Shown here: positions 2,486-23,261 of the stretch, piece by piece
How the letters are laid out: every line of letters begins with the position of its first letter
Position numbering within the stretch: the first letter of the stretch is position 1
DNA from: Pseudomonadota bacterium
Lineage (GTDB): Bacteria; UBA10199; 2-02-FULL-44-16; JAAZCA01
Length of the DNA stretch: 64,000 nt
Direction: 5' to 3'
NCBI GenBank assembly: GCA_043798915.1
Contig: JAZDOG010000102.1
Span: 14,249-78,248, forward strand
Notes under the pieces: model-generated
Seen by the model: the letters and a program-made list of their open reading frames with translations, nothing else
The model's database searches: none
Told to the model about the DNA's origin: nothing
Translations under genes and position numbers: made by a program

Positions 2486-2680
2486 AGCGTCCGTTAAAAC
2501 CGTCAAAATTCTGACGGTTGGCCCCCTTTCTGCCACCCCCCCAAAAAAATAATTAAAAAAGTACGCAACAAATTTTGAGATCTGCCGATACCACTAGTGG
2601 AGGCTGCCGTGTGAATGTCCGGCGCTCCATCGGGTGGGAGAGGGAATAACATAAACAACGACACACGAAGGAGGGTTCAG

Positions 2681-3559
2681 ATGGGAGCAACATCGGTAAT
2701 CTGCAGTGGTTCATTGCCTGGCGGAAACGCCGAATCGATTCAGGCCGCGCTCCTCCTCTACAGCGCCGACGAGGCTGCCAAGCAAGGCACGGAGGGGATG
2801 ACCACGGAGGAGATTTTAAACACCACCATGCTCCCTGTGTCTGCAAAGGACGAAGGTGCCGCGCGTTTCTGCGCGGAGATCAGCAATTTTTATTCCGAAC
2901 CCCAAAGCAGAAACGTCTTAGGTCGCATCAATGCCGCGCTGAACAAGAGTCCGTTCTTCAACTTCAGCAGCCTGCAAGGGCAGAACTTTGGAGCGTTCCG
3001 AGAGATAGCGGCAAACCTCAGGGGACGAAAAGACAAGCAGGATGTAAGTGTCAACGAGTACTGGAAGGGCGTGAAGCTGATGCTCGAGGCCACATTTATG
3101 CCGCCTGCTGCGCCGGTCTGCCAGGCCGGCAAGACCGACCTCCTCTCGCTTCTCGAAGTTTTCGCTCAGCCGCTGCTTACGATACCGGCGCTGGATGACA
3201 TCCAAATCGCAAAAGCCCTGAACATCCGCGGCAATTCGGACCCGAATTGCGCCGATCCCTTCGCGTCGGTCATCATGGCGTATCACTTCTTCAAGAAGGG
3301 ACAGCTGCCCGGCACAACGCCAGTCAACGCAAAGATGTATTCACAAAAGGCCAGGGAACAGCTGGATTTCGCGATAAAGAACATGGCTCAGATAAGCGAT
3401 AGCCAGAGGGCATTTCTCACAGCGGTGATCGAAGTCATTGGGGCGGCTCCAAAAAAGCCCCTAGGGCCGAAAAAGCCTACAGGCCCGACAAAACCCAAAC
3501 CACCCAAGCCACCCAAGCCGGATGACAATCCGTTTGGTGCTTCAGTTCCAGGGGAATAG
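2681..3559 (+). CDS. hypothetical protein with C-terminal Pro/Lys-rich tail
   Basis: ORF track 2615..3559. The ATG at 2681 is preceded by gaaggaggg (Shine-Dalgarno) about 5 nt upstream and is used as start. No signal peptide and no recognisable family. Tail is KKPLGPKKPTGPTKPKPPKPPKPDD. First gene of a tightly spaced 3-gene operon. Confidence 0.6.
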   Translation: MGATSVICSGSLPGGNAESIQAALLLYSADEAAKQGTEGMTTEEILNTTMLPVSAKDEGAARFCAEISNFYSEPQSRNVLGRINAALNKSPFFNFSSLQGQNFGAFREIAANLRGRKDKQDVSVNEYWKGVKLMLEATFMPPAAPVCQAGKTDLLSLLEVFAQPLLTIPALDDIQIAKALNIRGNSDPNCADPFASVIMAYHFFKKGQLPGTTPVNAKMYSQKAREQLDFAIKNMAQISDSQRAFLTAVIEVIGAAPKKPLGPKKPTGPTKPKPPKPPKPDDNPFGASVPGE

Positions 3560-3592
3560 CGAACACAACCGTAAAAACGTCGAGGAGGGAAT

Positions 3593-6577
3593 ATGTTTGC
3601 AGGCGGCGATCAGAACTACATCACGGGACGCGCGATAAAATACCTCTGCGGCGGAGCGGCCTATCCCGACACCGGACCGAAGGCCTTCGATCTCGCCAAG
3701 GCCGATAAGGACTGCGCGAAAGCCGTGACGGCGGAAATTCAAGACGCCTTTGCCGCGCTTGCCGGAGGCACTCCCAAACAACTGGACAACCTCGAAGCCT
3801 ATCTCAAGCTCCGGAACGATACGGCCTATATGACCTGCTTCATATCATCCGGCGCGGGCGACAGCGGCGTCAACAGAACGACCGGCACGCTGCTAAATAA
3901 GTGCATGGATGAATTCTACAAGGGCAAGGACTCCAGCGGCACTGATAAAAAGGTAAATCTATATAAGACCAACGTCGGCGGTGATTTGCATTTCAAAGTC
4001 ATGGGCGAATACGTGCCGTGGGCGGTGGAACAGGTCAAGGCAGGTATCCCCGCCGCAAGCACCATTCCGCTCCCGGCCGCGTTCATGACCTATCTCGATA
4101 GCATCAAGGACCCCAAATACTTGGTCCTCTACAGAACCATATTGCGCCTCTACTCCGAAGCGAAGGCAGAACTCACATCTGAGCAGCAGCTCGATTCAAG
4201 AATTGCCACGAGGATCGCCGACCAGCTGGTGGAGTGGGCCAGGCTCAGGAAAGATCTCCTCGACCATGCAACAACGGATACCGATAAATATAACGTCGAG
4301 GCGGCGATCGTCACGTCCCTCGTCGAGGGCGTGGACGCTGCACACGACTTCGCAGTAAAGATAGTCGACCTCATCGCAACCGATCTCTTCAAGCCCGAAA
4401 AAATCGGCTACAAGCAGGGAGAAAAGATTGCGCTCGAGGCCCTGGAAGAGCTCCGCCAGCGCTCCTACGAGGTGAAAACCGACGCCGCAAACAAGGAGGC
4501 CGTGGGAAGGGACTTCGGTCGCCTGACCTCCGAGACGGCCAAGACGACGAGCAACTTCGTCAGCAAGCTGCATCCTTCGATGGAAAAACTGGCCGGCAAG
4601 CTCCACAAGTACGCGGCATCGGTGAAGCTCAACGAGGACAAGACGATCAAAGAAGTGGTCTTCAAGAAGAGGGGCGCATCGGAAGTCCCGTCCAAGCTTG
4701 TTGACGCCTTCGGGGCGAAGAATGACCCGCTCCTCACCGCAGTCCTGGCCGAATTGTTGAAACAGCTCATGGATGCGGCCGCTGGGGCGCTCGGCGGCAA
4801 AGACAAGGCCCGCGACAGAGAAGCGGAGCTCATGGAACAACTCATCGACAAGCTCAACAGGCTCTCGACTGCCAACGGCGGCGACGTGAGCCCGGAGTTC
4901 TTCGCCCGCATCTGGATATTCGGAGTGGATCCTGACGGAAAGATACATACGGGGCTCGTTCCTGATGAGCTCTTCTCGCCCAAAATAATGAGACTCATCA
5001 ACGGTCCGGGCGGCATCGCGATCCTCCATGCCCTGAAGCGCCTCTTCATCGAGGCGATACTGGAAGATCCGAAACGCTACATGGGACAGGGAGCGGCTGA
5101 GGAAGGAAATCGCAGCGCCCTGGCCAAGCAGATAAGCGGCGCAGCCCGCAAAAAGATTTATGGCGGCGAGGACCTCGAGTCAGGCGTGAGGGACTTCCTC
5201 GAAGACCAGCATTTCGTCGAATTAAAAACGACCAAGGGCAAAAAGGGCAAACCGGATGTCGTCGAGGCCGTCATCGCGGCGCCTCCGCATTCAGCCAACG
5301 AGATATGCGCCGACAAGAAATGCAGGACGACGCTCACCGTGGGCCTGGACAGCGAGTTTGGCGGCGTGACCCCGACAGAAAAAGCGGAGACAAATCCATT
5401 CCAGGCGCTGGTCATAGCTGGAGTCAAGGGACGTGTTCGGCTGAATGATGAAATAGGCATCACGGCCGACGCTCAGTACATCTACGGAAAATGGGTGGAG
5501 ACGTTCGCCAAGGCCGGCATAAACGACGGCTTCCAGCTCGACCCGAACAATGCGGGTGAAATCTCGGCGTTCAGGGAACTGTCGGTTGGAATCAATGGGC
5601 ACCATGATTTCGAGGATGAAGATGGCAAGGTAACAGGAAAAATAAAAGGAAGCGTCAAGGGAGGCCTTACAAGCAAACGCGTTCCGGCGCTTGGCGCCAT
5701 GGATCTGCTGCCTGATGTTGGAATGGCATATATGCTCTATCCAACAGCCGGATCCAGCGCAACGGCTGGCGGCATCGGACACGTTGAGGGCTCCTACAAC
5801 ACATCCGAGGATGGAAAACTGATAATCGGCGCAGCGGTGGGATTCAACACCTTCCGATACAACGTGAGCTTGAGGCAGGATGCCGACGCGCCTCCCACCC
5901 CGGACGGACCGGGCGGCTGTGTCGTGAGCCCATCGCTCTATGCCGGATATCAGGGCAAGAGGGTCCACGCTGGAGTGGCCTATCGCGGAAACATGACTGT
6001 TGGTGGCGATTATTCGCCGGATATACCGCTAAGAAACGTCACAGACGGCATCAGCCGCCACACCGGGGAAGCGGGCGCTAAGATCTTTTTCGGCGGCGAG
6101 GAGAGCCAGGATCACAGCCTCTTGCTGCATGCCCGATATAACGCCCTCCTGAGCAACCATGCCACAAGTTTGAGCCAGGTCATGGCCACGCTTCAGTACG
6201 AAGGCGTCTGGTTCAATAGAACCAGGTGGATGATACAGGGAGTCGCCAATCTTTCATACATGAGGACGTTCGGCAACGTTGATCCGTCGCTCCCAGGGTC
6301 CACACTTTCAGGCGCAGGCGGCGCGGGCGACATATCGCAGACCAACATATCTGGAGACGTGTCCGTTTTCAACGAGGCCTTCGTAGCCACACTAAAACCC
6401 AAAGTCATTTTGCGGCAAGGACCGCAGTACAGCAGCGGGATTTACTTACAACCAATAGCTCAGTTGATCTGCGCCGACCAGGGTCATGACGGCAACGGCA
6501 TGTCCTGTGCCTTCTTCGGCGGCGCCGCTTTTGGCTTCCTGGGCGATCTCATTGACTTGTTCAAAAAGGGCAACTGA
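3593..6577 (+). CDS. large hypothetical protein (994 aa): helical N-terminal half, beta-rich barrel-like C-terminal part
   Basis: gaggaggg SD 3 nt before the ATG, 33 nt after the upstream stop. No N-terminal signal peptide. The last ~430 aa show alternating-hydrophobic, Gly/Tyr/Asn-rich strands (e.g. AAVGFNTFRYNVSL, LYAGYQGKRVHAGVAYRG, ATLQYEGVWFNRTRWMIQGVANLSYMRTFG) reminiscent of outer-membrane barrels. No family recognised. Confidence 0.65.
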   Translation: MFAGGDQNYITGRAIKYLCGGAAYPDTGPKAFDLAKADKDCAKAVTAEIQDAFAALAGGTPKQLDNLEAYLKLRNDTAYMTCFISSGAGDSGVNRTTGTLLNKCMDEFYKGKDSSGTDKKVNLYKTNVGGDLHFKVMGEYVPWAVEQVKAGIPAASTIPLPAAFMTYLDSIKDPKYLVLYRTILRLYSEAKAELTSEQQLDSRIATRIADQLVEWARLRKDLLDHATTDTDKYNVEAAIVTSLVEGVDAAHDFAVKIVDLIATDLFKPEKIGYKQGEKIALEALEELRQRSYEVKTDAANKEAVGRDFGRLTSETAKTTSNFVSKLHPSMEKLAGKLHKYAASVKLNEDKTIKEVVFKKRGASEVPSKLVDAFGAKNDPLLTAVLAELLKQLMDAAAGALGGKDKARDREAELMEQLIDKLNRLSTANGGDVSPEFFARIWIFGVDPDGKIHTGLVPDELFSPKIMRLINGPGGIAILHALKRLFIEAILEDPKRYMGQGAAEEGNRSALAKQISGAARKKIYGGEDLESGVRDFLEDQHFVELKTTKGKKGKPDVVEAVIAAPPHSANEICADKKCRTTLTVGLDSEFGGVTPTEKAETNPFQALVIAGVKGRVRLNDEIGITADAQYIYGKWVETFAKAGINDGFQLDPNNAGEISAFRELSVGINGHHDFEDEDGKVTGKIKGSVKGGLTSKRVPALGAMDLLPDVGMAYMLYPTAGSSATAGGIGHVEGSYNTSEDGKLIIGAAVGFNTFRYNVSLRQDADAPPTPDGPGGCVVSPSLYAGYQGKRVHAGVAYRGNMTVGGDYSPDIPLRNVTDGISRHTGEAGAKIFFGGEESQDHSLLLHARYNALLSNHATSLSQVMATLQYEGVWFNRTRWMIQGVANLSYMRTFGNVDPSLPGSTLSGAGGAGDISQTNISGDVSVFNEAFVATLKPKVILRQGPQYSSGIYLQPIAQLICADQGHDGNGMSCAFFGGAAFGFLGDLIDLFKKGN

Positions 6578-6626
6578 TGATCCAAATTGTGGGTTGAAAG
6601 ACAACCATTAAGCGAGGGTCAGGGAT

Positions 6627-9302
6627 ATGAAAATCAAAGGGATGAAAAGAACGTGGTGCTTCATGGCCGCGGTCGTCTTCGCGGCGATGGCAGCCGGCTG
6701 CGACGACGGTTCGCTCCAGATGCCGGGGCTGGGGGCGAACATCACGCCGCCGACGCCCAACATCATCGCCTTCAGTGCGGACCCGAATCCGGCCAAGGCC
6801 GGAGAGACGACCAATATCTCATGGGAGGTGGCAAACGCCGACTCCGTCGAGATCACGGCGACGTCCGGCGGAAAGGCGATCTCGTTTGACGTGAAGACGA
6901 CGGACCTCAAGGGCACCGCGCCATCACCCGCCCTCACCGCCACGACGGAATTCACCCTGACCGCAACAAAGAAGGCCCCAACGGAAACGGCCGCACCGGC
7001 CAGCGCAAACGCCGCGAAGGCCGATGAGACAAAACCGCCAGCGGGAACCAATGATTCGCCATCGCTGACCTCGGTTTCGCAGACGATCACCGTGACCGTC
7101 GATCAGGCGAACGAGATCAAAGCGACGATAGACGCGGACAGCAAGAGCCTGACACCGGGCGACCAGACGGTCATCCGATGGAAGGTAGGGCCCGCTGACG
7201 GTCTGACGATCAAGGTTGAGTCCGACACCGGCGAGCCGATCTCGGCCACCGAAAAGTGCGACGGGGACATCAAGACGATTCTGGGACAGACGCCGGCATC
7301 AACCATTCCGGCAGTCGGCTGCGCCGTCGTAGCGCCCCAGGTGAAGACAACCTACACCGTGACGGCCTTGGCCGGCGAAACGGCATTGCTGGCCGGGAAA
7401 AATACAGCCAGCGTGGTGGTAGACGTCAACACACAACTGGAAGTTGCGCGCTTCACGGTCAACCAACAGGAAAATGCGGTGGTCGCCGACTTCAGCGCAC
7501 CTGTCACTCTCGAGTGGACAGTCATCCCCAAGGGAGCGCTCGTGACGATCGTCTCCAGCCCGAGGGCCGCATGCGACCTGCCGGTGGACAGTGCGTCGGC
7601 CGGCGAGGCCGAGCAGCTGCCGTGCATGATCGCCGCCAACACGACGTTCACGCTGACCGCAAAACTCGGCAAGGACGGCGCGTCTCAGACGCGCACCGCG
7701 ACCGTCAGGCAGCAGCAGGCCGGCGGCGCCGACCTCAAAATCACATCCGACGGAGGGGGATGGGCGTTCGCGGGAGAACAGGTCGCCGTGGTGATCGAGC
7801 CGATCGGAAACGCGCAGATGATAGGCAAGGTGACCATCAGCAACGGAAACGGCCTGGCGGTGGTCCCCCCCTTAAGCTCTGGAGCAGTGACCGTAAAGGT
7901 TCAGGTTCCGGCATCCGGCGTGCACGTGAGCTGGACCTGCGATACCTGCGAAGTCAAAGAGCGCAGCGTCCTTGCAGTGCAGGCGATGCCGATGAACCCG
8001 AAGGCCTTCGGCGAGGAAAGCTCCTCCGTCATGCGGATCACGAGCGTGACACCCATCGCCGGATCAGATGGCGTATTCCTCTACGGCGTGGATCGCGGAT
8101 ACAACAAGGGAGTCGCATCGATTTTCAAGTCCGGGATCTCGCTCTCCGATGAGCTGATGATGAACATAGACTTCGGCAGCGCGATGCTCGGCGTCAACGG
8201 ATCGGCGGCCTTCTTCAACCCGGATTTCCTCAGCAAGATGGACTATCCGGTCGGCGCGATCGGCGTCACCAAGGACAACCGCATATATGTCGGAACCTCC
8301 GGCGCGCTGATGTATGAGATCAAGGGCGCCAAGGGTCCGGAATGGAAGATCTTCGACCAGTTCTTCGGCTGGGCAGACAGCGCACACCCCTATCCAGGGT
8401 CGCATCCGACGTGCGCCGGCGAAACGCAGAAGGGCAATCCGGCGAGCGGTTCGAGCACGATTGCAACACTCCATGAGTTCTGCGACATCGCCTTCTTCGG
8501 CGAGAAGGGCCTCATGGTCGCCACGGACCGCGGCGTGTTCGCAATGAAGGATGCGGATGCATATCTCACAGACAGAAAAGCCAACGTGTGGAAGGGAATT
8601 CCGCCCGCCGGCAAGACCTACAAGGACGGTGCAGCCTTCCTGACATTCTCGAGGGTGGCGAACGACCTTCAGCAGGTTGACACCAGGATATTCGCGGCGA
8701 CATCGAAGGGCTCCGGGACTGCGCTCGGCGGCGTGTTCGTCACCGCCGACAACGGCGACACCTGGACTGAATTCGGCCTCAAAGATACGGATGTCTACAG
8801 CCTTGCCTACGACGACCAGGCCAAGAAGCTATACGCAGGCACGGCCAGCGGCGTGCAGGTCTCGGATGTATCCGCCGCATCTTCATGGACTCAGGTCGGT
8901 ACGCTCAAAAAGGCGGTCTTCTCCCTCGCCGTCGACCCGTACAGCTCCGGCGGCGTGCTTGTCGCCGGCACCGCTGACGGCCTGTCGGTCCTGCGCGGGG
9001 TGGGCACGGGAGACTGGGTCGATATCGGGGACAAACACGGCGTTAAACTGGGCAAGATCCGGGCGCTGACCATGGTCAACAAGGTCGACGATGCCAAGGG
9101 CCTCATCCAGCATTACGTTGCGATCGGCACGCTCAAAGGCGCGATCAACGGAAGCGTTGCGGTCCACAAGGCATCCGTGATGCCGACAGCAGTTGTTCCT
9201 GAAACTCCGCAGATTCCGTCGGCGACGCCTGTGGTTACCACCGTGCCGCCAAAAGCAAATGTCACCTCGGCATATATTATGAAGAAGCCAACCGGCATTT
9301 GA
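6627..9302 (+). CDS. lipoprotein with three Ig-like repeats and a BNR/Asp-box beta-propeller-like C-terminal region
   Basis: Signal peptide plus lipobox (MKIKGMKRTWCFMAAVVFAAMAAGC). Three ~90-100 aa repeats each end in TxFTLTA/TYTVTA. The C-terminal part contains an Asp-box-like motif (TADNGDTW) and repeated Gly/Thr/Ala-rich blade-like stretches (e.g. YAGTASGV, VAGTADGL). Confidence 0.75.
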   Translation: MKIKGMKRTWCFMAAVVFAAMAAGCDDGSLQMPGLGANITPPTPNIIAFSADPNPAKAGETTNISWEVANADSVEITATSGGKAISFDVKTTDLKGTAPSPALTATTEFTLTATKKAPTETAAPASANAAKADETKPPAGTNDSPSLTSVSQTITVTVDQANEIKATIDADSKSLTPGDQTVIRWKVGPADGLTIKVESDTGEPISATEKCDGDIKTILGQTPASTIPAVGCAVVAPQVKTTYTVTALAGETALLAGKNTASVVVDVNTQLEVARFTVNQQENAVVADFSAPVTLEWTVIPKGALVTIVSSPRAACDLPVDSASAGEAEQLPCMIAANTTFTLTAKLGKDGASQTRTATVRQQQAGGADLKITSDGGGWAFAGEQVAVVIEPIGNAQMIGKVTISNGNGLAVVPPLSSGAVTVKVQVPASGVHVSWTCDTCEVKERSVLAVQAMPMNPKAFGEESSSVMRITSVTPIAGSDGVFLYGVDRGYNKGVASIFKSGISLSDELMMNIDFGSAMLGVNGSAAFFNPDFLSKMDYPVGAIGVTKDNRIYVGTSGALMYEIKGAKGPEWKIFDQFFGWADSAHPYPGSHPTCAGETQKGNPASGSSTIATLHEFCDIAFFGEKGLMVATDRGVFAMKDADAYLTDRKANVWKGIPPAGKTYKDGAAFLTFSRVANDLQQVDTRIFAATSKGSGTALGGVFVTADNGDTWTEFGLKDTDVYSLAYDDQAKKLYAGTASGVQVSDVSAASSWTQVGTLKKAVFSLAVDPYSSGGVLVAGTADGLSVLRGVGTGDWVDIGDKHGVKLGKIRALTMVNKVDDAKGLIQHYVAIGTLKGAINGSVAVHKASVMPTAVVPETPQIPSATPVVTTVPPKANVTSAYIMKKPTGI

Positions 9303-9340
9303 GGAGAAAATAGAAAGCCCAAGAGGGTGGGGATGGAAAT

Positions 9341-9379
9341 CAAGGCCGGGCCAACAATGGTCCGGCCTTGGTGTTTTAT
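9341..9379 (+). terminator. hairpin plus T-tract after the lipoprotein gene (also copy 1 of a ~55-nt repeat, see 12382)
   Basis: caaggccgg-gccaacaatggt-ccggccttg (9-bp stem) followed by gtgttttat. The wider segment 9325-9379 is repeated at 12382-12437. Confidence 0.55.
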
Positions 9380-9461
9380 ATTAAAAAGGGATGGCGGTTC
9401 AACTATTTGACAATATCTGCCTAGAAAGCTACACGCCTCGCCAGAAGCTATTTAACAAACG

Positions 9462-10949
9462 ATGGGAGACAACATGATCAACATCTGTGACCCGATTCAA
9501 TACATACCGAAGCTGAACGGAAAACCGGAGGATTATTGGCAAAAGCTTCAAGACCAATGTGACAAAGGCCGCAATGCTTTCGATGTCGACAACGCGCCTC
9601 TGATGGAAATAAGAAGGCAAATTGGAAAAGCACGTCTATTGCCTGATGCGAGCACTAAAATTTTTGCGCTGGTCCAAGAGCTGAAGAAAAAAGCCGCTAC
9701 CATTAAAGATGATTATATTAAAAACAAGACACTATGTAAGAAAGGCAAAGAACAGAACGCTGAAGCCTGTGGCTACGTCGACTACTACGACAAATTTGAA
9801 ACCATCCTGGGTCCGGTTGACGAGATAAGAAAGCCTGCCAAGTCGCCGACATCTGTCCCCCTCGTCCCATTGAGGAGCGGCAATCCAACAATCAATCTCC
9901 CCCCTCCATTCAAAGGCCATCAAGTCCAATTTGATACGGGCTCATCAACCTCTCTCTTCTCCAAGAGATTCGTAGAATCTCGCCCTGATAATTTTTTGCC
10001 ATTACAGATTACATCTGGAGATTATGGCCTGGGGGTATACAGGATCGAAGATATCAAAATCAACATAGGCAACGCAGCATTTTCACCTCAGGTGGGCGTA
10101 GCTGTTTCGGCGGTCGATGAGGACGGTGGAACTGACAGGGAAGGTCAGCTTATTGCGACGTTGGGTTTGGACTTTCTCCTCATGAGATCGGTCAGATTCA
10201 ATTACTCCAAACAATCGATCGTCTTTGATCAAAACTTAGACAAGGAACTTCGCACAGGGAAGTGGGAGGCAATCCCCCTGCAGATCCGGAGGGAAGGGCT
10301 GTTTGGAGGGCTTTTTATAAGTCTCGAGGTTCTTCTGAACGGACAAGCAACTCAAATGCATTTTGATACCGGGGCAGAACTGTCATATGTTTTTGAGAGC
10401 TGTCTCCCCAAACTCCCTGAGTTGCCTGATGCCACAAATGACAAATCCTGTGGTTACACGGGCGTAAATAGCCGTGGCAGCTCCAGCAAAACCATTTCCG
10501 ATGTAAAAGTCTCGCTCGGTGGATACGACATCAGAATACCGATGGATGTGCTCCCGGCAGATCTACCACACGTTAAACTGCTGCTGAGTAAAAATATCTG
10601 CGGAATGGCCGGCCTTAATATGTTTACGCGCTTCAATCCAATATTCGATCCAGCGACATCCACGCTGTACCTCGAATCACCCCAAAAAGGGCAAAAGATA
10701 TACAGCTTCAAAAATTTTGATTTTATCTACAGACAACAATTCAGCTATCGCTATGCCAGTGATGTCACAAAGGGCGGGTCTGCAGAAAAGGCCGGCTTGA
10801 AAACAAACGATATAATTTTAAAAATCAACGGCAGCGATGCTGCCAGCATGACAGGACGTCAATATATAGAATTGTCCTACGCTGATACTATAACGCTGCT
10901 CATAGATCGCGATGGCAAAAAAAAGACAATCAGAATAAAACTCCATTAG
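9462..10949 (+). CDS. single-chain double retropepsin-like aspartic protease with C-terminal PDZ domain
   Basis: Two DTG(S/A) active-site motifs (VQFDTGSSTS, MHFDTGAELS), each followed by a retropepsin-type hhGhD motif (ATLGLDFLLM, GMAGLNMF). PDZ-like C-terminus (GGSAEKAGLKTNDIILKINGSDA). No signal peptide. The alternative ATG at 9474 has the better SD (gggaga). Confidence 0.7.
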   Translation: MGDNMINICDPIQYIPKLNGKPEDYWQKLQDQCDKGRNAFDVDNAPLMEIRRQIGKARLLPDASTKIFALVQELKKKAATIKDDYIKNKTLCKKGKEQNAEACGYVDYYDKFETILGPVDEIRKPAKSPTSVPLVPLRSGNPTINLPPPFKGHQVQFDTGSSTSLFSKRFVESRPDNFLPLQITSGDYGLGVYRIEDIKINIGNAAFSPQVGVAVSAVDEDGGTDREGQLIATLGLDFLLMRSVRFNYSKQSIVFDQNLDKELRTGKWEAIPLQIRREGLFGGLFISLEVLLNGQATQMHFDTGAELSYVFESCLPKLPELPDATNDKSCGYTGVNSRGSSSKTISDVKVSLGGYDIRIPMDVLPADLPHVKLLLSKNICGMAGLNMFTRFNPIFDPATSTLYLESPQKGQKIYSFKNFDFIYRQQFSYRYASDVTKGGSAEKAGLKTNDIILKINGSDAASMTGRQYIELSYADTITLLIDRDGKKKTIRIKLH

Positions 10950-11018
10950 CCTACGAACCGCCGACCAAGGCCGGGCCTTGATTTTTTAGCTACACTGAGG
11001 TTTGCCGACCATTCAACT

Positions 11019-12263
11019 TCAAAAATCAAAACTCTCTGGCGTGATGAGTTTGACCTCGCGCCCCATCGCTGGCTTTAGAATCTGCGAGCGCGACTTCACT
11101 TCATATAGCATTGTCTCTTCTCCTCGCCTGATGACGAGGTCCACTTCCTGCCCGGTGCTGGAGGAATACCAGAAGTAAGTGCGCTCAAATTGATGCGCGA
11201 ACTGAGAAGCAACTATCGATTCGAACAAATTTCCCCTCATTCCGGCGTCTGCCAGTGCGCCATCCCACCATCTGGCCACATTTCTGATGCCGCGCAGATA
11301 CCCGCCGGCCACCTGGTAGAGCAGCGGGTCTATGAAATAAATTTTTTTTGCCTTTCTAGGGGCAGCCATGTCCTTGTCAGGATCGTAGCAGGAAAGGACA
11401 TTGCATAAAAACGCCGATTCAAGATGCTCCACGTATGCCGCGGCGGTCTCGTGGCTGCGCACCGGCGATTTTTCAATCAGGCGCTGCCAGGTAACCTGGC
11501 TCGCCAGGGTGTCATAGACACGAAACAGGATGTGGAGCAGCACCTCCCGCGCCAGCTTAAAACGATACGCATCGCCAAAAATCCAGTTTGCATATGTTTC
11601 GCACGTTTCATCTGTAACTTCGCCGCGCTCACAGTAATCCCTGACAGCGTGAGGAAATCCTCCGACGCGGCTGTACACCTTCAAAATTTCATTTTTTTCC
11701 CAGCCTTTAAAAACTGGAAGAATTCGATAGTCGGAAGGGGATAAAGGATAAATCCTGCTTTCGACCACCTTCCGTCCCGGGAAACGCTCCCCCATCTCTT
11801 TTAAGTCCCTTGCGTTCGATCCGGAAATAAATGTCGTGGCGTTGGCCAGAAGTCCGGAATTGATTAACCAGAGCAAAGCGCGTTGCCACCCCACGACAAA
11901 AGTTATTTCATCCAGACACACCAGGACCGGACGGTCTTTTCTCCCCTCCATCCATTCAACGATGGTCGCCCGCAACTCGGAATGAGAATCGATGTTTTCG
12001 CAGGTTAAAAACAGGCAATCCTTTGCATTCACCATCTCTTCCGTCAGCGTTCGCGCAATCATCTCCTTCATCAAAGTTGTTTTTCCTACCTGCCGCGCGC
12101 CACGGAGAATGCAGGTCTTCCCTTTTTTGAAAACAAGGTCGGCTTTGACGGGATTGTCGAAATAAAAGTGCTTGCCGGCAATGGCTTGCAGATGTGAATC
12201 GCTTTTTATCGCCTCAGGGTTTTCCCACCACGGATTCAATACTTCGATCGACTTTCGGTCCAT
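11019..12263 (-). CDS. AAA ATPase of the AAA_14 + DUF4143 type
   Basis: ORF track 11019..12290. The ATG at 12263 is preceded by gaggtg. Walker A GARQVGKTTL, Walker B VLVCLDEI. The overall layout (N-terminal ...LNPWWENPEAI, C-terminal ...YFWYSSSTGQEVDLVI) matches the widespread orphan ATPase family with a C-terminal DUF4143 (from memory). Confidence 0.85.
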   Translation of the reverse strand: MDRKSIEVLNPWWENPEAIKSDSHLQAIAGKHFYFDNPVKADLVFKKGKTCILRGARQVGKTTLMKEMIARTLTEEMVNAKDCLFLTCENIDSHSELRATIVEWMEGRKDRPVLVCLDEITFVVGWQRALLWLINSGLLANATTFISGSNARDLKEMGERFPGRKVVESRIYPLSPSDYRILPVFKGWEKNEILKVYSRVGGFPHAVRDYCERGEVTDETCETYANWIFGDAYRFKLAREVLLHILFRVYDTLASQVTWQRLIEKSPVRSHETAAAYVEHLESAFLCNVLSCYDPDKDMAAPRKAKKIYFIDPLLYQVAGGYLRGIRNVARWWDGALADAGMRGNLFESIVASQFAHQFERTYFWYSSSTGQEVDLVIRRGEETMLYEVKSRSQILKPAMGREVKLITPESFDF

Positions 12264-12381
12264 AACACCTCGATAATTAAGGATAAACAACCACTTTGTA
12301 AATTATGCGATCATGATCGCATAATTTAAATTTCAAATCAAGGCATTACCACAAGCCAGGGAGTTGTCTGTTGCTGGACAT

Positions 12382-12437
12382 GGGGCGGGGAAGGAAATCG
12401 AGGCTGGACCAGCTTTTAGCCCGGCCTTGGTGCTTTA
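12382..12437. repeat. second copy of the ~55-nt hairpin repeat seen at 9325-9379
   Basis: ggggcggggaaggaaatcgaggctggaccagcttttagcccggccttggtgctttat versus gggtggggatggaaatcaaggccgggccaacaatggtccggccttggtgttttat. The hairpin arms are conserved, with a T.G wobble on the plus strand. Confidence 0.6.
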
Positions 12438-12443
12438 TGTTGT

Positions 12444-13898
12444 TCAGCGTGCGGCCTTCCGTTTCGTTCGGTCGATGATGATATTCATCCAGTCCCCGTT
12501 CCGGCGGATAAGGATTTTGGATCTCTTCCTTCTCGCGTAAGCCCACTCGACGATCCAGAACGGCGTCAGCTTCGATGCTGGCGTCTTGTCAATCCCTACG
12601 ATTTCATCGCCAGACCGCAGCCCGCTTTTGTATGCAGTGCTGTCCTCAGTGAGGTTGCCAACAACGAGCCTTCCGTCATCCCGGCGTTCTGTGAGGAAAC
12701 TAGGATTGATCGACGCCTCTCCCTTGGATTTTCGAGGGGAAATAAAGAGCGTGCGCGTCTCGGGGTCAATAATCATATTGAAGCGGGCGAGGACATCGAG
12801 CCCAATCGAGCCGCAGAGGCCATTTTTTTCCACCGTAGCGGAATTGGGGTCGCTCGTCGAAGTTACCGTAAGGCTATCAAGCGGGATATGTGATCCGCCT
12901 AATGTCAACGTAATGTTCCCAATTGCCATTGCGTCGACAGTTGTTCCGTCTGCAATTCGTCCACCACCCAGACTGCGGACGGTCTGTTTCGGAAGTTTCA
13001 ATAGGCAAGACGGGATAATAGAGCTTAAATTTGAACCCGTATCCACGGCAAAGGGAAAGCTCACACCGTCGACGTCTGCCTTGACCAGAATGAGAACACC
13101 CAAATTCGAACTTTGAATTCCCGCTATAGAAAATGGGACAGGCCCCCATCTCTTTTCTGCCAGGCGCCTGCCTACGTCCTGGTTCTCCGTCACCGTCCAG
13201 GAGTCGTAGTTTATCTCAACGGGACTTTGGAGAAAAAAATCGAGACCAAGCAATGCAACAAGGCGTTTGCCGGGTTCCGTGCCCTCGAGCTTGTCGAGAA
13301 GACCGACCTCAACGACGAATGGAGGCGAGTACGATATCTGGCCGAGGACAAAAGCGAGACCGGAGGTATTGTACGCCTTGAGACCATATATTGGAACTCT
13401 GTTCTTCTCGGTAAAATGGGCCGACTCCAAGGTCTGCAAATATTTCGAAACTCCTGAACTACTAGAACCAGTATCGAGGAAGACTTCCCGCCGCTCCCCT
13501 CCCTTTGTCGAAAGCTCGGCGACAAGATAGCCGCTTTTGAGGGGAGTAAGTTTTGCCGAGCGAGGCTCCCCGGAAAAACGCCCAATCTCGCCCGGATTCC
13601 CGAAGAGTTTGACAAAATTATCATAGACGGCGGTGAACCCGCAGGCAAAGGCATCGGCGTTCTCGGAGCAAGACTTGGCCTTATCGAGATACTCCTCTTC
13701 GACTGGCCGGGCTCTTACTGGAAGAAGCCGTTTGAGATTTTCAATCTCGGGGTCTGTGAGGGAAGCGGCCTTCCTCCTCCCAATTTCGCGCCGGATCTCT
13801 ATGAGAGGTGAAATCCATCTATCAAAAGTCACTACGCCTTGGGAGCACTGCTGCCGATCGGATGCGTTGATGTTCGGGGAAAAGCAAAGATTGCCCAT
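12444..13898 (-). CDS. single-chain double retropepsin-like aspartic protease with C-terminal PDZ domain (diverged paralogue of 9462..10949)
   Basis: VFLDTGSSSS and FAVDTGSNLS active-site motifs; ALLGLDFFLQ and GSIGLDVLARF flap-side motifs; PDZ-like EDSTAYKSGLRSGDEIVGID. aggaga SD before the ATG. No signal peptide. Confidence 0.7.
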   Translation of the reverse strand: MGNLCFSPNINASDRQQCSQGVVTFDRWISPLIEIRREIGRRKAASLTDPEIENLKRLLPVRARPVEEEYLDKAKSCSENADAFACGFTAVYDNFVKLFGNPGEIGRFSGEPRSAKLTPLKSGYLVAELSTKGGERREVFLDTGSSSSGVSKYLQTLESAHFTEKNRVPIYGLKAYNTSGLAFVLGQISYSPPFVVEVGLLDKLEGTEPGKRLVALLGLDFFLQSPVEINYDSWTVTENQDVGRRLAEKRWGPVPFSIAGIQSSNLGVLILVKADVDGVSFPFAVDTGSNLSSIIPSCLLKLPKQTVRSLGGGRIADGTTVDAMAIGNITLTLGGSHIPLDSLTVTSTSDPNSATVEKNGLCGSIGLDVLARFNMIIDPETRTLFISPRKSKGEASINPSFLTERRDDGRLVVGNLTEDSTAYKSGLRSGDEIVGIDKTPASKLTPFWIVEWAYARRKRSKILIRRNGDWMNIIIDRTKRKAAR

Positions 13899-14025: not shown

Positions 14026-14442
14026 ATGAAACACACACGCATCATAGCCGCAGCTGCAATCCTCATCACCGCCTTTGTGCCGTATGCATCGCTGACGCAC
14101 GGCGACGCCATGGCCTCCGCAAAGGCGCCCGTCAAAGGCGCCGGATTCGAGGGATCGGCCGCATGGGCAAAGGCCGATCTGCGCCTGCGCGAGGCATGGC
14201 GCGGCGCCTCTGAAAAGGGAAAGGGATCGGAGAGGCTCGAATGCCTGATGAAGACCCGCATGCCTATCGGCGCGAATGAACGGGCCCTGCTCAAGAGCGC
14301 GGGTTTTGTCGTGCACACCGTGATCGTGACCATCGCAACGGGGGATCTCGCCGCGAAAAACCTCCCCGCCGTGGCTTCGCTGGATTTTGTGGAGTCGATG
14401 GAACTGGCGGCGCCGATGTCTATAAAACGGAAGAAGGATTGA
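14026..14442 (+). CDS. small secreted hypothetical protein
   Basis: In-frame ATG at 14026 inside ORF 13633..14442 gives a 138-aa protein with a signal peptide (MKHTRIIAAAAILITAFVPYASLTHG). Its 3' end overlaps atpC convergently by 23 nt. Confidence 0.5.
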   Translation: MKHTRIIAAAAILITAFVPYASLTHGDAMASAKAPVKGAGFEGSAAWAKADLRLREAWRGASEKGKGSERLECLMKTRMPIGANERALLKSAGFVVHTVIVTIATGDLAAKNLPAVASLDFVESMELAAPMSIKRKKD

Positions 14443-21741: not shown

Positions 21742-22548
21742 CTAGTTATTATCGAAAACTCGTGGAGACTCGGTTGCAACAGAAGAAACAGCCGTTCCCA
21801 GGACCTCTCGCGCGAGGTCGAAATAGCTGGTCGCGCCCTTCGAACTGACGTCGTATAAAAGAATCGGTTTGCCATGGCTCGGGGCTTCGCTGAGCCTCAC
21901 ATTTCGGGGTATCACGACATGAAAGACCGACTCCTTGAAATGGCCGCGGATCTCCTGTTGGACCTGGTGTGAAAGATTGTTTCTCGCATCAAACATCGTG
22001 AGCACGATACCCCTGATCCTCAATTTTGGATTGATTCTTCCCTTTACGAGCGAAATCGTCCGCTGAAGATCGGCTATCCCCTCCATGGCATAGTATTCAC
22101 ACTGCACAGGGATAAGCACCGACTCGGCTGCGGCGAGGGCGTTGAGCGTCACGAGACCGAGCGAGGGGGGACAGTCCATTATCACAAAATCGTAATCATC
22201 CCTTATCGCGTCGATGTGAAAACGGAGACGTGTTTCACGTGAAACAACTCCGACGAGCTCTATCTCGGCACCGACCAGCGACGGGTTCGATGGCACCATC
22301 TTGAGATGGGTGAGATCTGTAGGCTGAACTATGGATGCGATATCGACGCCGTCGACCAGCACATTATATATGCTCTGGCTGATATGATGCTTGTCGAGGC
22401 CCATCCCGGTGGTGGCATTTCCTTGTGCGTCGAGATCTATGAGGAGGGTCCGCTTTTCAGCGGCTGCAAGCGCAGCGGAAAGATTGATGGCGGTCGTCGT
22501 CTTGCCCACACCGCCCTTTTGATTGCATATGGCTATGACTTCTGCCAT
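21742..22548 (-). CDS. parA: chromosome partitioning ATPase ParA/Soj
   Basis: Deviant Walker A NQKGGVGKTTTAINLSAALA; 268 aa; immediately upstream of parB. Confidence 0.93.
   Translation of the reverse strand: MAEVIAICNQKGGVGKTTTAINLSAALAAAEKRTLLIDLDAQGNATTGMGLDKHHISQSIYNVLVDGVDIASIVQPTDLTHLKMVPSNPSLVGAEIELVGVVSRETRLRFHIDAIRDDYDFVIMDCPPSLGLVTLNALAAAESVLIPVQCEYYAMEGIADLQRTISLVKGRINPKLRIRGIVLTMFDARNNLSHQVQQEIRGHFKESVFHVVIPRNVRLSEAPSHGKPILLYDVSSKGATSYFDLAREVLGTAVSSVATESPRVFDNN
22231..22246. promoter_or_regulatory. parS site (inside the parA coding sequence)
   Basis: Perfect 16-bp palindrome tgtttcacgtgaaaca, matching the canonical parS consensus. Confidence 0.85.
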
Positions 22549-22605
22549 CGGACCCCCACGTTGAATCTTTTCTAGGTTGTTTTATCTGAAAGTGCAATGG
22601 AAAAT

Positions 22606-22621
22606 TGTTTCACGTGAAACA
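22606..22621. promoter_or_regulatory. parS site (upstream of parA)
   Basis: Perfect tgtttcacgtgaaaca, 58 nt upstream of the parA start. Confidence 0.85.
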
Positions 22622-22683
22622 ATTGCCATAAAACTATATTAAATTAGTTATTTAACCAATAATATCAACGAGTTAGCTTTGGT

Positions 22684-22784
22684 GTCATTGCGAGGAGCGA
22701 AGCGACGTGGCAATCCCGTGCTAACCACTGTTTTAAGGGGATCGCCACGTCGCTCCAAGTCTATCAAGGGCTCCTCGCGATGAC
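22684..22784. repeat. family-2 nested inverted repeat
   Basis: The outer arms gtcattgcgaggagc / gctcctcgcgatgac pair. The inner arms gcgacgtggcaatccc / gggatcgccacgtcgc pair apart from one mismatch (a vs c). A right-half copy lies at 48124-48164. Confidence 0.8.
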
Positions 22785-22882
22785 AGCCCGGCTCGAGAAC
22801 AATCTTCATTTGAGCACAAAAAAACACAACTCACCCCTTGACTATGGGGAGACAGGTATTATATGAAGACCAACTGAAGCCG

Positions 22883-22909
22883 TTAGCACTCAACTGCAAC
22901 AAGTGCCAA
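22883..22909 (+). promoter_or_regulatory. CIRCE-like HrcA operator upstream of groES
   Basis: ttagcactc-N9-aagtgccaa versus the consensus TTAGCACTC-N9-GAGTGCTAA (left arm 9/9, right arm 7/9), about 50 nt before the groES ATG. A ttgact -35 at 22838 and tatatg about 16 nt downstream could be the promoter. Confidence 0.6.
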
Positions 22910-22961
22910 CAATAAAAATCGATTAGTTGTTAATAACTTAACAACCACAAGGAGGAAGGGT

Positions 22962-23261
22962 ATGGCAACATCAAAGATCAGACCGCTGCAGGACCGCATC
23001 CTGGTCAAACGCCTCAATGAAGAGGAGAAGACCAAGGGCGGAATCATCATCCCCGACTCGGCGAAAGAAAAACCGCAGGAGGGCGAGGTCATCGCCGTGG
23101 GCAACGGCAAGGTGCTCGAGAATGGCACAAAGGTTCAGCTCGACGTGAAGATCGGAGATCGCATCCTGTTCTCAAAATATTCCGGCTCAGAAGTGAAGAT
23201 CGACGGCAACGAGTACACGATCATGCGCGAAGACGACGTCCTCGGCATCCTCACGAATTGA
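22962..23261 (+). CDS. groES: co-chaperonin GroES
   Basis: 99 aa; [42 protein letters not shown] is canonical. Confidence 0.97.

Follow-up and report, generated by a model that had tools for sequence, protein, structure and literature searches.

The stretch of DNA considered here is 64,000 nucleotides (nt) long and is referred to as the window, with coordinates counted from its first letter. It carries two open reading frames (ORFs) for aspartic proteases, Prot1 and Prot2, on either side of a gene for an ATPase of the AAA_14/DUF4143 type. All three ORFs lie at the positions and on the strands given in the original prediction, which had read them as a candidate protease-ATPase module and had raised the prospect of an anti-phage system that uses aspartic proteases. 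Prot1 and Prot2 are distant paralogues, as proposed there, sharing 29% identity from end to end (E 4e-54). The segment is also AT-richer than its surroundings, at 49.5% GC compared with 58.1% in the remainder of the window, and the GC content at third codon positions (GC3) is low: 0.50 for Prot1, 0.59 for the ATPase and 0.58 for Prot2, versus 0.81-0.89 for atpD/G/A, groEL and OPT. The features of the locus, with the evidence for each in parentheses, are as follows.

6627-9302, + strand: h891, a backbone gene for an 891-amino-acid (aa) lipoprotein with lipobox AAGC, left border of the variable slot (homologue position, lipobox)
9325-9379, + strand: hairpin repeat copy 1, a strong intrinsic terminator of h891 (terminator scan, fold)
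9462-10949, + strand: Prot1, 495 aa, consisting of a helical domain with four conserved cysteines (Cys4), lobe 1, lobe 2 and a PDZ domain (ORF, Pfam, family alignment, AlphaFold2 model)
10966-10980, + strand: hairpin copy 3, short, the terminator of Prot1 and the border between the Prot1 unit and the ATPase unit (terminator scan, shared 12-mer)
11019-12263, - strand: AAA_14 + DUF4143 ATPase with a PD-(D/E)xK-type C-terminal domain, PADLOC candidate PDC-S01 (Pfam, PADLOC)
12299-12328, no strand: perfect 30-bp palindrome, TAAATTATGCGATCA followed by TGATCGCATAATTTA, operator-like, just upstream of the ATPase (inverted repeat, 100% complementary)
12382-12437, + strand: hairpin repeat copy 2, which repeats the h891 terminator directly but in degenerate form (repeat comparison, fold)
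12444-13898, - strand: Prot2, 484 aa, paralogue of Prot1 with the same four-part architecture (ORF, Pfam, alignment)
14026-14442, + strand: small139, a backbone gene for a 138-aa secreted protein, right border of the variable slot (homologue position)

Architecture and relatives of the proteases

Pfam recognizes only lobe 2 (as Asp_protease_2) and the PDZ domain in Prot1 and Prot2. An exhaustive HMMER profile search of 1.84 billion representative proteins, with the subfamily cut at E < 1e-30, gathered 27 representatives, all 460-505 aa in length. The domain boundaries in Prot1 place the N-terminal domain at residues 1 to about 125, lobe 1 at about 129-266, lobe 2 at about 267-408 and the PDZ domain at about 409-495. 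The catalytic motifs are D158-T-G and D302-T-G in Prot1 and D142-T-G and D286-T-G in Prot2. Both DTG aspartates are invariant in 27/27 family sequences, and the late-lobe glycines G235 (LGLDF) and G384 (GLN/GLD) are likewise invariant in the 27-member alignment. When the two lobes of the 27 members are compared with each other by hhalign, they match at 96.6% probability (E 6.6e-10), in a register that sets DTG on DTG and GxDFL on GxDVL. The description of each protein as two complete retropepsin lobes followed by a C-terminal PDZ domain is thus upheld.

The original prediction had also proposed that structure modeling be used to look for a pepsin-like bilobal fold. The AlphaFold2 model of Prot1, built on the 27-sequence alignment, has a mean predicted local distance difference test score (pLDDT) of 88.7 and a predicted TM score of 0.89; an alignment of the two paralogues alone gave a pLDDT of 36. 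The top solved structure retrieved by Foldseek is 9IY9, a putative endopeptidase of Bacteroides fragilis released in 2025 (E 2.6e-12), followed by dozens of pepsin-family enzymes, including pepsin, endothiapepsin, chymosin and renin, over about 350 columns at a probability of 1.00. The model accordingly has the bilobal fold that was expected. The family profile matches the sequence of 9IY9 at 5e-10. The sequence and fold hallmarks of clan AA are present, namely a D-T/S-G motif in each lobe, a late-lobe hydrophobic-hydrophobic-Gly motif, and a bilobal, beta-rich fold that superposes on pepsin. Prot1 and Prot2 are single-chain, pseudo-dimeric aspartic endopeptidases of modeled pepsin shape, with one catalytic Asp in each retropepsin lobe. 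C-terminal of the lobes stands a DegP/RseP-type PDZ domain; in comparisons with the PDZ domains of RseP and DegP, the family profile scores 1e-17 to 1e-18. This domain may tether substrates or activators by their C-terminal tails.

The N-terminal region was rightly described as containing cysteines, but at about 125 aa it is shorter than the 150 or so residues first estimated. Four cysteines in it are invariant (C9, C33, C92 and C103), and the AlphaFold2 model has three helices, at residues 23-57, 63-94 and 100-116; judging from the helix register, the four cysteines would come together at one end of the bundle. Two further cysteines are conserved in lobe 2 (C314 and C380), and most members of the subfamily have exactly these six. 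A comparison of the N-terminal domain with Pfam and PDB sequences returned no significant match.

No signal peptide precedes this domain, and a check of the start codons leaves that claim standing: neither Prot1 nor Prot2 can be extended upstream, as each opens at the first start codon past a stop. Over the first 45 aa, the maximum Kyte-Doolittle hydrophobicity in a 10-residue window does not exceed 1.6 in the subfamily, versus 2.4-3.35 in the sampled secreted relatives, and all 27 members of the subfamily lack a hydrophobic N-terminus as well as any transmembrane-like segment along the chain. The three-helix Cys4 domain stands where the abundant secreted relatives have their signal peptide, a replacement which suggests that the proteases probably act in the cytoplasm. 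Its role can be proposed with low confidence only: it may be a metal-binding or redox-sensitive regulatory domain, or a pro-domain. Because the secreted relatives are without the six cysteines, a metal-binding or redox role in the cytoplasm is favored over disulfides. An N-myristoylation-type 'MG...C' motif was considered for the N-terminus and rejected, since D3 of Prot1 violates the rule and the second residue is not fixed (G, S, N, T, A, E, P, D, L, F).

Below the subfamily lie about 2,000 weaker matches. Among the 150 listed, most are about 390-420 aa long, and many of the listed matches of about 400 aa align from around position 135 of the query to its C-terminus. Nine of these relatives were sampled (seven of about 400 aa and two of about 630 aa), and all nine have a signal peptide or lipobox and few cysteines. 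On these sequence comparisons, the subfamily is a signal-less offshoot of an abundant secreted family built of two Asp_protease_2 lobes and a PDZ domain. With its new Cys4 domain, the signal-less subfamily is a rare and genuinely undescribed variant.

Nearly all members of the subfamily come from short metagenomic contigs (contigs and proteins are cited below by L and P numbers). Prot2 is identical to P0006, an NCBI protein encoded on an 87,225-bp contig and on record once. Exact-sequence look-ups with Prot1, Prot2 and P0006 turned up no recorded contig. A word-indexed protein search, swamped by PDZ matches, yielded five weak matches for Prot1 and, with the family profile, one subfamily member. 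Scans of species-representative genomes, for which short motifs from small family subsets were the only probes, found no family member, and a search of plasmids with the protease found no match. A viral structure library returned single retropepsin domains only, without the full architecture. In the star-like family tree, Prot1 clusters with P0010, Prot2 with P0007, and P0019, the protease of the syntenic contig L004, with P0024. The proteases of L005 and L010 share 27% identity where the adjacent S8 peptidase shares 55%, and those of the window and L004 share about 25-27% where OPT shares 76%.

Several observations concern individual family members and their neighbors. In L011 (9128-10560) two overlapping ORFs take the place of the intact family gene: one of 314 aa runs from the N-terminal domain through lobe 1 into the beginning of lobe 2, and the other, of 163 aa, covers the PDZ part; this is probably a frameshift or a pseudogene. 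On three independent contigs (L005:9196-9828, L010:2620-3204 and L017:153-827) the protease is adjoined by a signal-less protein of about 200 aa with 29-36% identity among the copies, conserved Cys motifs (…FS..GC.Y…RSC.E…) and no significant Pfam match; it is absent from the window. An S8 (subtilisin-like) peptidase of about 1000 aa lies directly 3' of the protease in L005 (11701-14697) and L010 (5066-7954). Two other neighbors of family members (L003:510-1178 and L007:2810-3670) are signal-less proteins with a Lys/Ala-rich N-terminus that contains a close Cys pair, and with a Gly-rich, beta-barrel-like C-terminal half. Their Cys pair resembles the short C92-C103 spacing in the N-terminal domain of the proteases.

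The ATPase, the hairpins and the variable slot

The gene between the two proteases encodes an AAA_14/DUF4143 ATPase, as had been recognized (Pfam 2.8e-21 and 2.4e-16, respectively). Its motifs include a Walker A (GARQVGKT), a Walker B (LVCLDE) and, near the C-terminus, EVDLV...YEVK with D...E-x-K residues. DUF4143 is listed in the PD-(D/E)XK superfamily (PMC3424549), and the motifs are those expected of a P-loop nucleoside triphosphatase (NTPase) fused to a predicted PD-(D/E)xK nuclease-like domain. Seven PADLOC models of PDC-S01 match the protein, the best being PDLC04787 (5.6e-28, 95.9 bits, residues 55-400; the curated cut-off is not part of the output). The PDC systems are a set of 145 untested candidates (10.1101/2024.01.29.577857). 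The ORF starts with ATG, and a TTG at 12290 is a possible alternative start. Promoter-like sites lie upstream on the - strand at 12330-12302 and 12302-12273, with hexamers that overlap the 30-bp palindrome, and the palindrome region has a fold z of -4.5.

An ATPase of this type is also encoded in L004, in the opposite orientation relative to the flanks and with 23% identity to that of the window. On model PDLC04789 the L004 protein scores 266 bits and the window protein 87 bits (96 on its own best model), and each scores higher against homologues on gammaproteobacterial plasmids (Moraxella or Acinetobacter) than against the other. Given the low identity, the different PDC-S01 models and the higher plasmid scores, the two ATPases are read as independent acquisitions. 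The plasmid homologues are orphan 'ATP-binding proteins' that sit among transposases, a recombinase, an integrase-domain gene and a conjugative-transfer gene; no protease lies beside these distant homologues.

The gene to the left of the segment, h891, has no Pfam match, and NCBIfam gives a weak match to a glycosylhydrolase family at its C-terminus. With h891 as a probe, syntenic relatives beyond L004 were recovered; homologues with 31-35% identity lie in the same position in L004, L012, L013, L014 and L015. A counterpart of small139 with 46-52% identity comes directly after the h891 homologue in L013 and L015, and after whatever fills the slot in L004 and L012. L004 shares synteny with the window: OPT has 76% identity, an 880-aa h891 homologue 34% and a small139 homologue 47%. 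Nothing lies between h891 and small139 in two genomes (L013 and L015), and three genomes have different contents there; this stretch is therefore a variable slot. In L012 it holds an unrelated 418-aa ORF. In L004 (7467-8481) it holds a nucleotidyltransferase (Polbeta/MNT) and HEPN pair that matches the PADLOC candidate PDC-M05A/B (3e-63 and 6e-30), in addition to a protease and an ATPase, and so behaves like a small defense-type island. Beside the L004 ATPase, a 61-aa ORF (L004:11454-11642, - strand) matches PDC-S01/DUF4143 models at their C-terminal end alone (7.8e-08). From its sequence it looks like a relic of an earlier DUF4143 gene, which would imply repeated turnover in the slot. On the far side of the slot, a different S8 peptidase comes directly after small139 in L004, L012, L013 and L015.

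The hairpins mark the internal borders of the segment. The repeat of about 55 nt that had been reported at 9325-9379 and 12382-12437 is indeed present as two direct copies that occur nowhere else in the 64 kb (chance expectation 0-0.09), and a third, shorter hairpin, previously unmentioned, lies at 10966-10980. Copy 1 consists of a 15-pair stem followed by GTTTTAT (-30.3 kcal/mol, z = -5.4). Copy 2 folds at -26.2 kcal/mol on the + strand, where it faces no gene that it could terminate, and on the - strand its fold is no better than that of shuffled sequences (z = -0.49). A duplicated copy of an insertion site would have just this orientation. All three hairpins have the 12-mer CAAGGCCGGGCC in common, and all five matches to it in the window fall inside them, with 0.67 matches expected. 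Hairpins lie between all three genes, and their spacings are 1610 nt for the Prot1 unit and 1449 nt for the ATPase unit, the latter close to the size of the corresponding unit in L004. There, a 57-nt direct repeat (L004:11690-11746 and L004:13158-13214; 53/57 identical, with sharp edges and a spacing of 1468) is a duplication of the terminator element found after the h891 homologue, and encloses only one gene, the DUF4143 ATPase. This suggests that a terminator hairpin is where these DUF4143 ATPase genes insert, each as a separate cassette.

Two known classes of element were considered for the hairpins. An integron attC site was rejected by eye: ends of the RYYYAAC/GTTRRRY type were not seen, and there is no integrase among the genes examined, although the window was not searched for one. 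A dispersed repetitive extragenic palindromic (REP) element was rejected because the repeat has no other copy in the 64 kb. Separately, all h891 homologues have a short motif like AAGGCCCAAAGGGGGCT between their stop codon and the terminator hairpin (window 9300-9330; L013:12758-12780; L015:6441-6462; L012:8790-8812; L004:13200-13222, reverse complement). In L004 it lies inside the duplicated element.

Further afield in the window, three large ORFs of 314, 994 and 891 aa occupy 2615-9302, with no Pfam match and intermediate GC3 (0.65-0.78). The 994- and 891-aa ORFs, the latter being the lipoprotein, have counterparts in the same order in L004, at an identity of only 22-34%. Outside the Prot1-ATPase-Prot2 segment, the 500-nt bin with the lowest GC content (44%) is 22501-23000, just upstream of parA. 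The parAB and atp operon context suggests that the window is near a replication origin. The closest named relatives of AtpD are from metagenome-assembled genomes of uncultured 'Deltaproteobacteria bacterium', at no more than 87% identity.

Joint function or a shared insertion site

Ten neighborhoods of the protease family were obtained, the window and L004 included. An AAA_14/DUF4143 gene beside the protease is absent from eight of them (L001/2, L003, L005/6, L007-9, L010, L011, L017/18 and the P0016 contig). The two that have one, the window and L004, represent the same syntenic slot in one lineage. Taken together with ATPases of different clades and with an L004 repeat that encloses the ATPase alone, this speaks against the protease-ATPase module as originally conceived. 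Nor is the arrangement that of an operon: a terminator separates the ATPase from the convergent Prot1, and between the ATPase and Prot2, 180 nt further upstream, there are a hairpin copy, the palindrome and a distinct promoter-like region. PADLOC models gave no match to Prot1 and only a 27-residue match to Prot2 (E 0.002). The idea of an anti-phage system with aspartic proteases likewise loses ground, as PADLOC matches the ATPase only, and as the single-gene candidate PDC-S01.

With somewhat better than even confidence, the locus is read here as a variable chromosomal slot that contains stand-alone, signal-less proteases, next to which the ATPase is an independent insertion of PDC-S01, so that the genes are neighbors through a shared insertion hot spot and not through joint function. 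Separate gene units would have accumulated in the slot beside the h891 terminator hairpin. Prot1 and Prot2 would be two stand-alone protease units, and the ATPase unit would have arrived separately, with duplication of the terminator hairpin and with its own palindrome-bearing promoter. A number of observations weigh against this account. A protease and a DUF4143 ATPase are both found in the slot, tail to tail, in two of the five readable syntenic genomes, a sample in which chance is not demonstrable. At about 25% identity, compared with 76% for OPT, the proteases have diverged no more slowly than the ATPases, which would also fit co-diversification. Most family contigs are only 2-7 kb long, so that an ATPase gene at a distance of some kilobases might go unseen. 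The weak - strand fold of hairpin copy 2 makes read-through from Prot2 into the ATPase possible. In addition, the missing signal peptide is the sole ground for placing the proteases in the cytoplasm, and six conserved cysteines are also compatible with three disulfides in an exported protein.

The tail-to-tail arrangement of protease and ATPase in the same variable slot of two genomes would be in keeping with a two- or three-gene conflict system formed by the ATPase and one or both proteases, with the ATPase as sensor and the aspartic protease as effector, or the reverse. The HEPN/MNT pair (PDC-M05) in the L004 slot, the atypical composition, the rapid divergence of both kinds of gene, and the longer repeat copies of the window (about 55 nt), which enclose Prot1 and the ATPase together, would all agree with such a system. 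It is nevertheless quite unlikely. Eight of ten family neighborhoods have no such ATPase, both co-occurrences belong to one syntenic locus in one lineage, and the two ATPases are not each other's closest relatives; the duplication in L004 encloses the ATPase alone, and in the window a third hairpin separates Prot1 from the ATPase. Moreover, the genes are convergent or 180 nt apart, the ATPase has its own promoter and palindrome, the proteases have no PADLOC model match, and PDC-S01 is defined as a single-gene candidate. The hot spot and the fast evolution could alternatively be explained if the proteases were accessory conflict genes independent of the ATPase, such as single-gene abortive-infection effectors or toxins. 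Three proteases from three clades of a star-like tree occur in one hot spot that is empty in L013 and L015, their identity is as low as 27% where an S8 peptidase retains 55% (L005 versus L010) and OPT 76%, their GC3 is low, and the family is very rare and patchy. Against this stand seven contexts among housekeeping genes (YchF, MiaB-like, SMC/FtsY, urocanase/L17, hydrogenase/Moco), the absence of plasmid and PADLOC matches, and a viral structure library that yielded nothing beyond single retropepsin domains; lineage-specific accessory enzymes, too, typically evolve fast. This explanation is therefore considered unlikely as well. A bolder form of it, in which the fast-evolving proteases are conflict or defense cargo that arrived independently in a hot spot where PDC-S01 and HEPN/MNT candidates gather as well, and are possibly coupled to the adjacent DUF4143 NTPase, with the Cys4 domain as an off-switch until triggered, is very unlikely, but if true it would be the first aspartic-protease-based immune effector in bacteria.

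A different kind of alternative concerns where the proteases act. They might be exported by a non-Sec route or be zymogens, in which case the N-terminal domain would serve for targeting or as a pro-domain, and the six cysteines would be paired in three disulfides, as in secreted enzymes of the pepsinogen kind. The conservation of all six cysteines, and of exactly six in most members, would suit this, as would the secretion of all sampled relatives of about 400 aa, the frequent large secreted neighbors (S8 peptidases, a TSP3 protein, the h891 lipoprotein) and the recurrence of other signal-less proteins with Cys pairs beside the protease. However, a hydrophobic N-terminal segment is found in 0/27 members, the lineage puts ordinary signal peptides and lipoboxes to use (h891, small139), the six cysteines are missing from the secreted relatives, which is the reverse of what a disulfide logic would lead one to expect, and secretion-system genes are absent nearby. 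Export is thus regarded as highly doubtful, and the preferred account remains that of stand-alone, probably cytoplasmic proteases in a variable slot.

Comparison with known systems

IetS is a subtilisin-like serine protease. The IetAS pair resembles the present locus in that an ATPase gene adjoins a protease gene in AT-richer DNA. The locus differs from IetAS in having no match to a PADLOC model of such systems, no single operon, no conserved adjacency and another class of protease. An ATPase flanked by proteases is a layout that can arise by repeated insertion at one terminator hairpin.

The comparison with PDC-S01 (COG1373) is closer. The ATPase of the window has both domains and, like the plasmid homologues, is an orphan in mobile or variable DNA. 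It is, however, a distant member, at 96 bits as opposed to 266 bits for the L004 ATPase. In two genomes, DUF4143 ATPase genes of different clades and opposite orientation lie between duplicated terminator elements of about 55 nt, which may bear on the mobility of these very common orphan genes.

Among the retropepsin-like proteases of bacteria that have been studied, RimB and RloA of Pseudomonas come nearest, and the localization can be compared with theirs: RimB is cytoplasmic and RloA bears a signal peptide (PMC11957791, PMC12239564). The coexistence of cytoplasmic and signal-bearing forms parallels the signal-less and secreted branches seen here. In contrast to the fused two-lobe chains of the window, retropepsins are described as homodimers, and RloA is described without mention of a PDZ domain (PMC11957791, PMC12239564). 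The operons of RimB and RloA hold RimK or ATP-grasp partners, which are absent from the locus in the window. If the cytoplasmic branch with its undescribed Cys4 helical domain is real, it would represent a new regulatory solution for an aspartic protease. Very few cytoplasmic PDZ proteases are known in bacteria.

In overall architecture, the nearest counterparts are the secreted proteins of about 400 aa annotated as 'aspartyl protease family protein', of the 9IY9 type, which also combine two retropepsin-like lobes and a PDZ domain in one chain. The proteins of the window differ from these in the lack of a signal peptide, the extra Cys4 domain of about 125 aa and two extra cysteines in lobe 2, at an identity of no more than about 25%. 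A literature search on 9IY9, on two-lobe retropepsin-PDZ proteins and on retropepsins in phage defense found no relevant paper.

The pepsin family (MEROPS A1) likewise has a bilobal single chain with one Asp per lobe, and Foldseek aligns its members with the Prot1 model at E about 1e-7 over 345-390 columns, with a target-normalized TM score of about 0.5. Unlike pepsins, the window proteins have lobes of retropepsin size that are homologous to each other in sequence, and a PDZ domain; the identity to pepsins is 11-16%, and an N-terminal helical domain takes the place of the pepsinogen prosegment. With two still-recognizable retropepsin lobes in one chain, these proteins are intermediate between dimeric retropepsins and pepsins.

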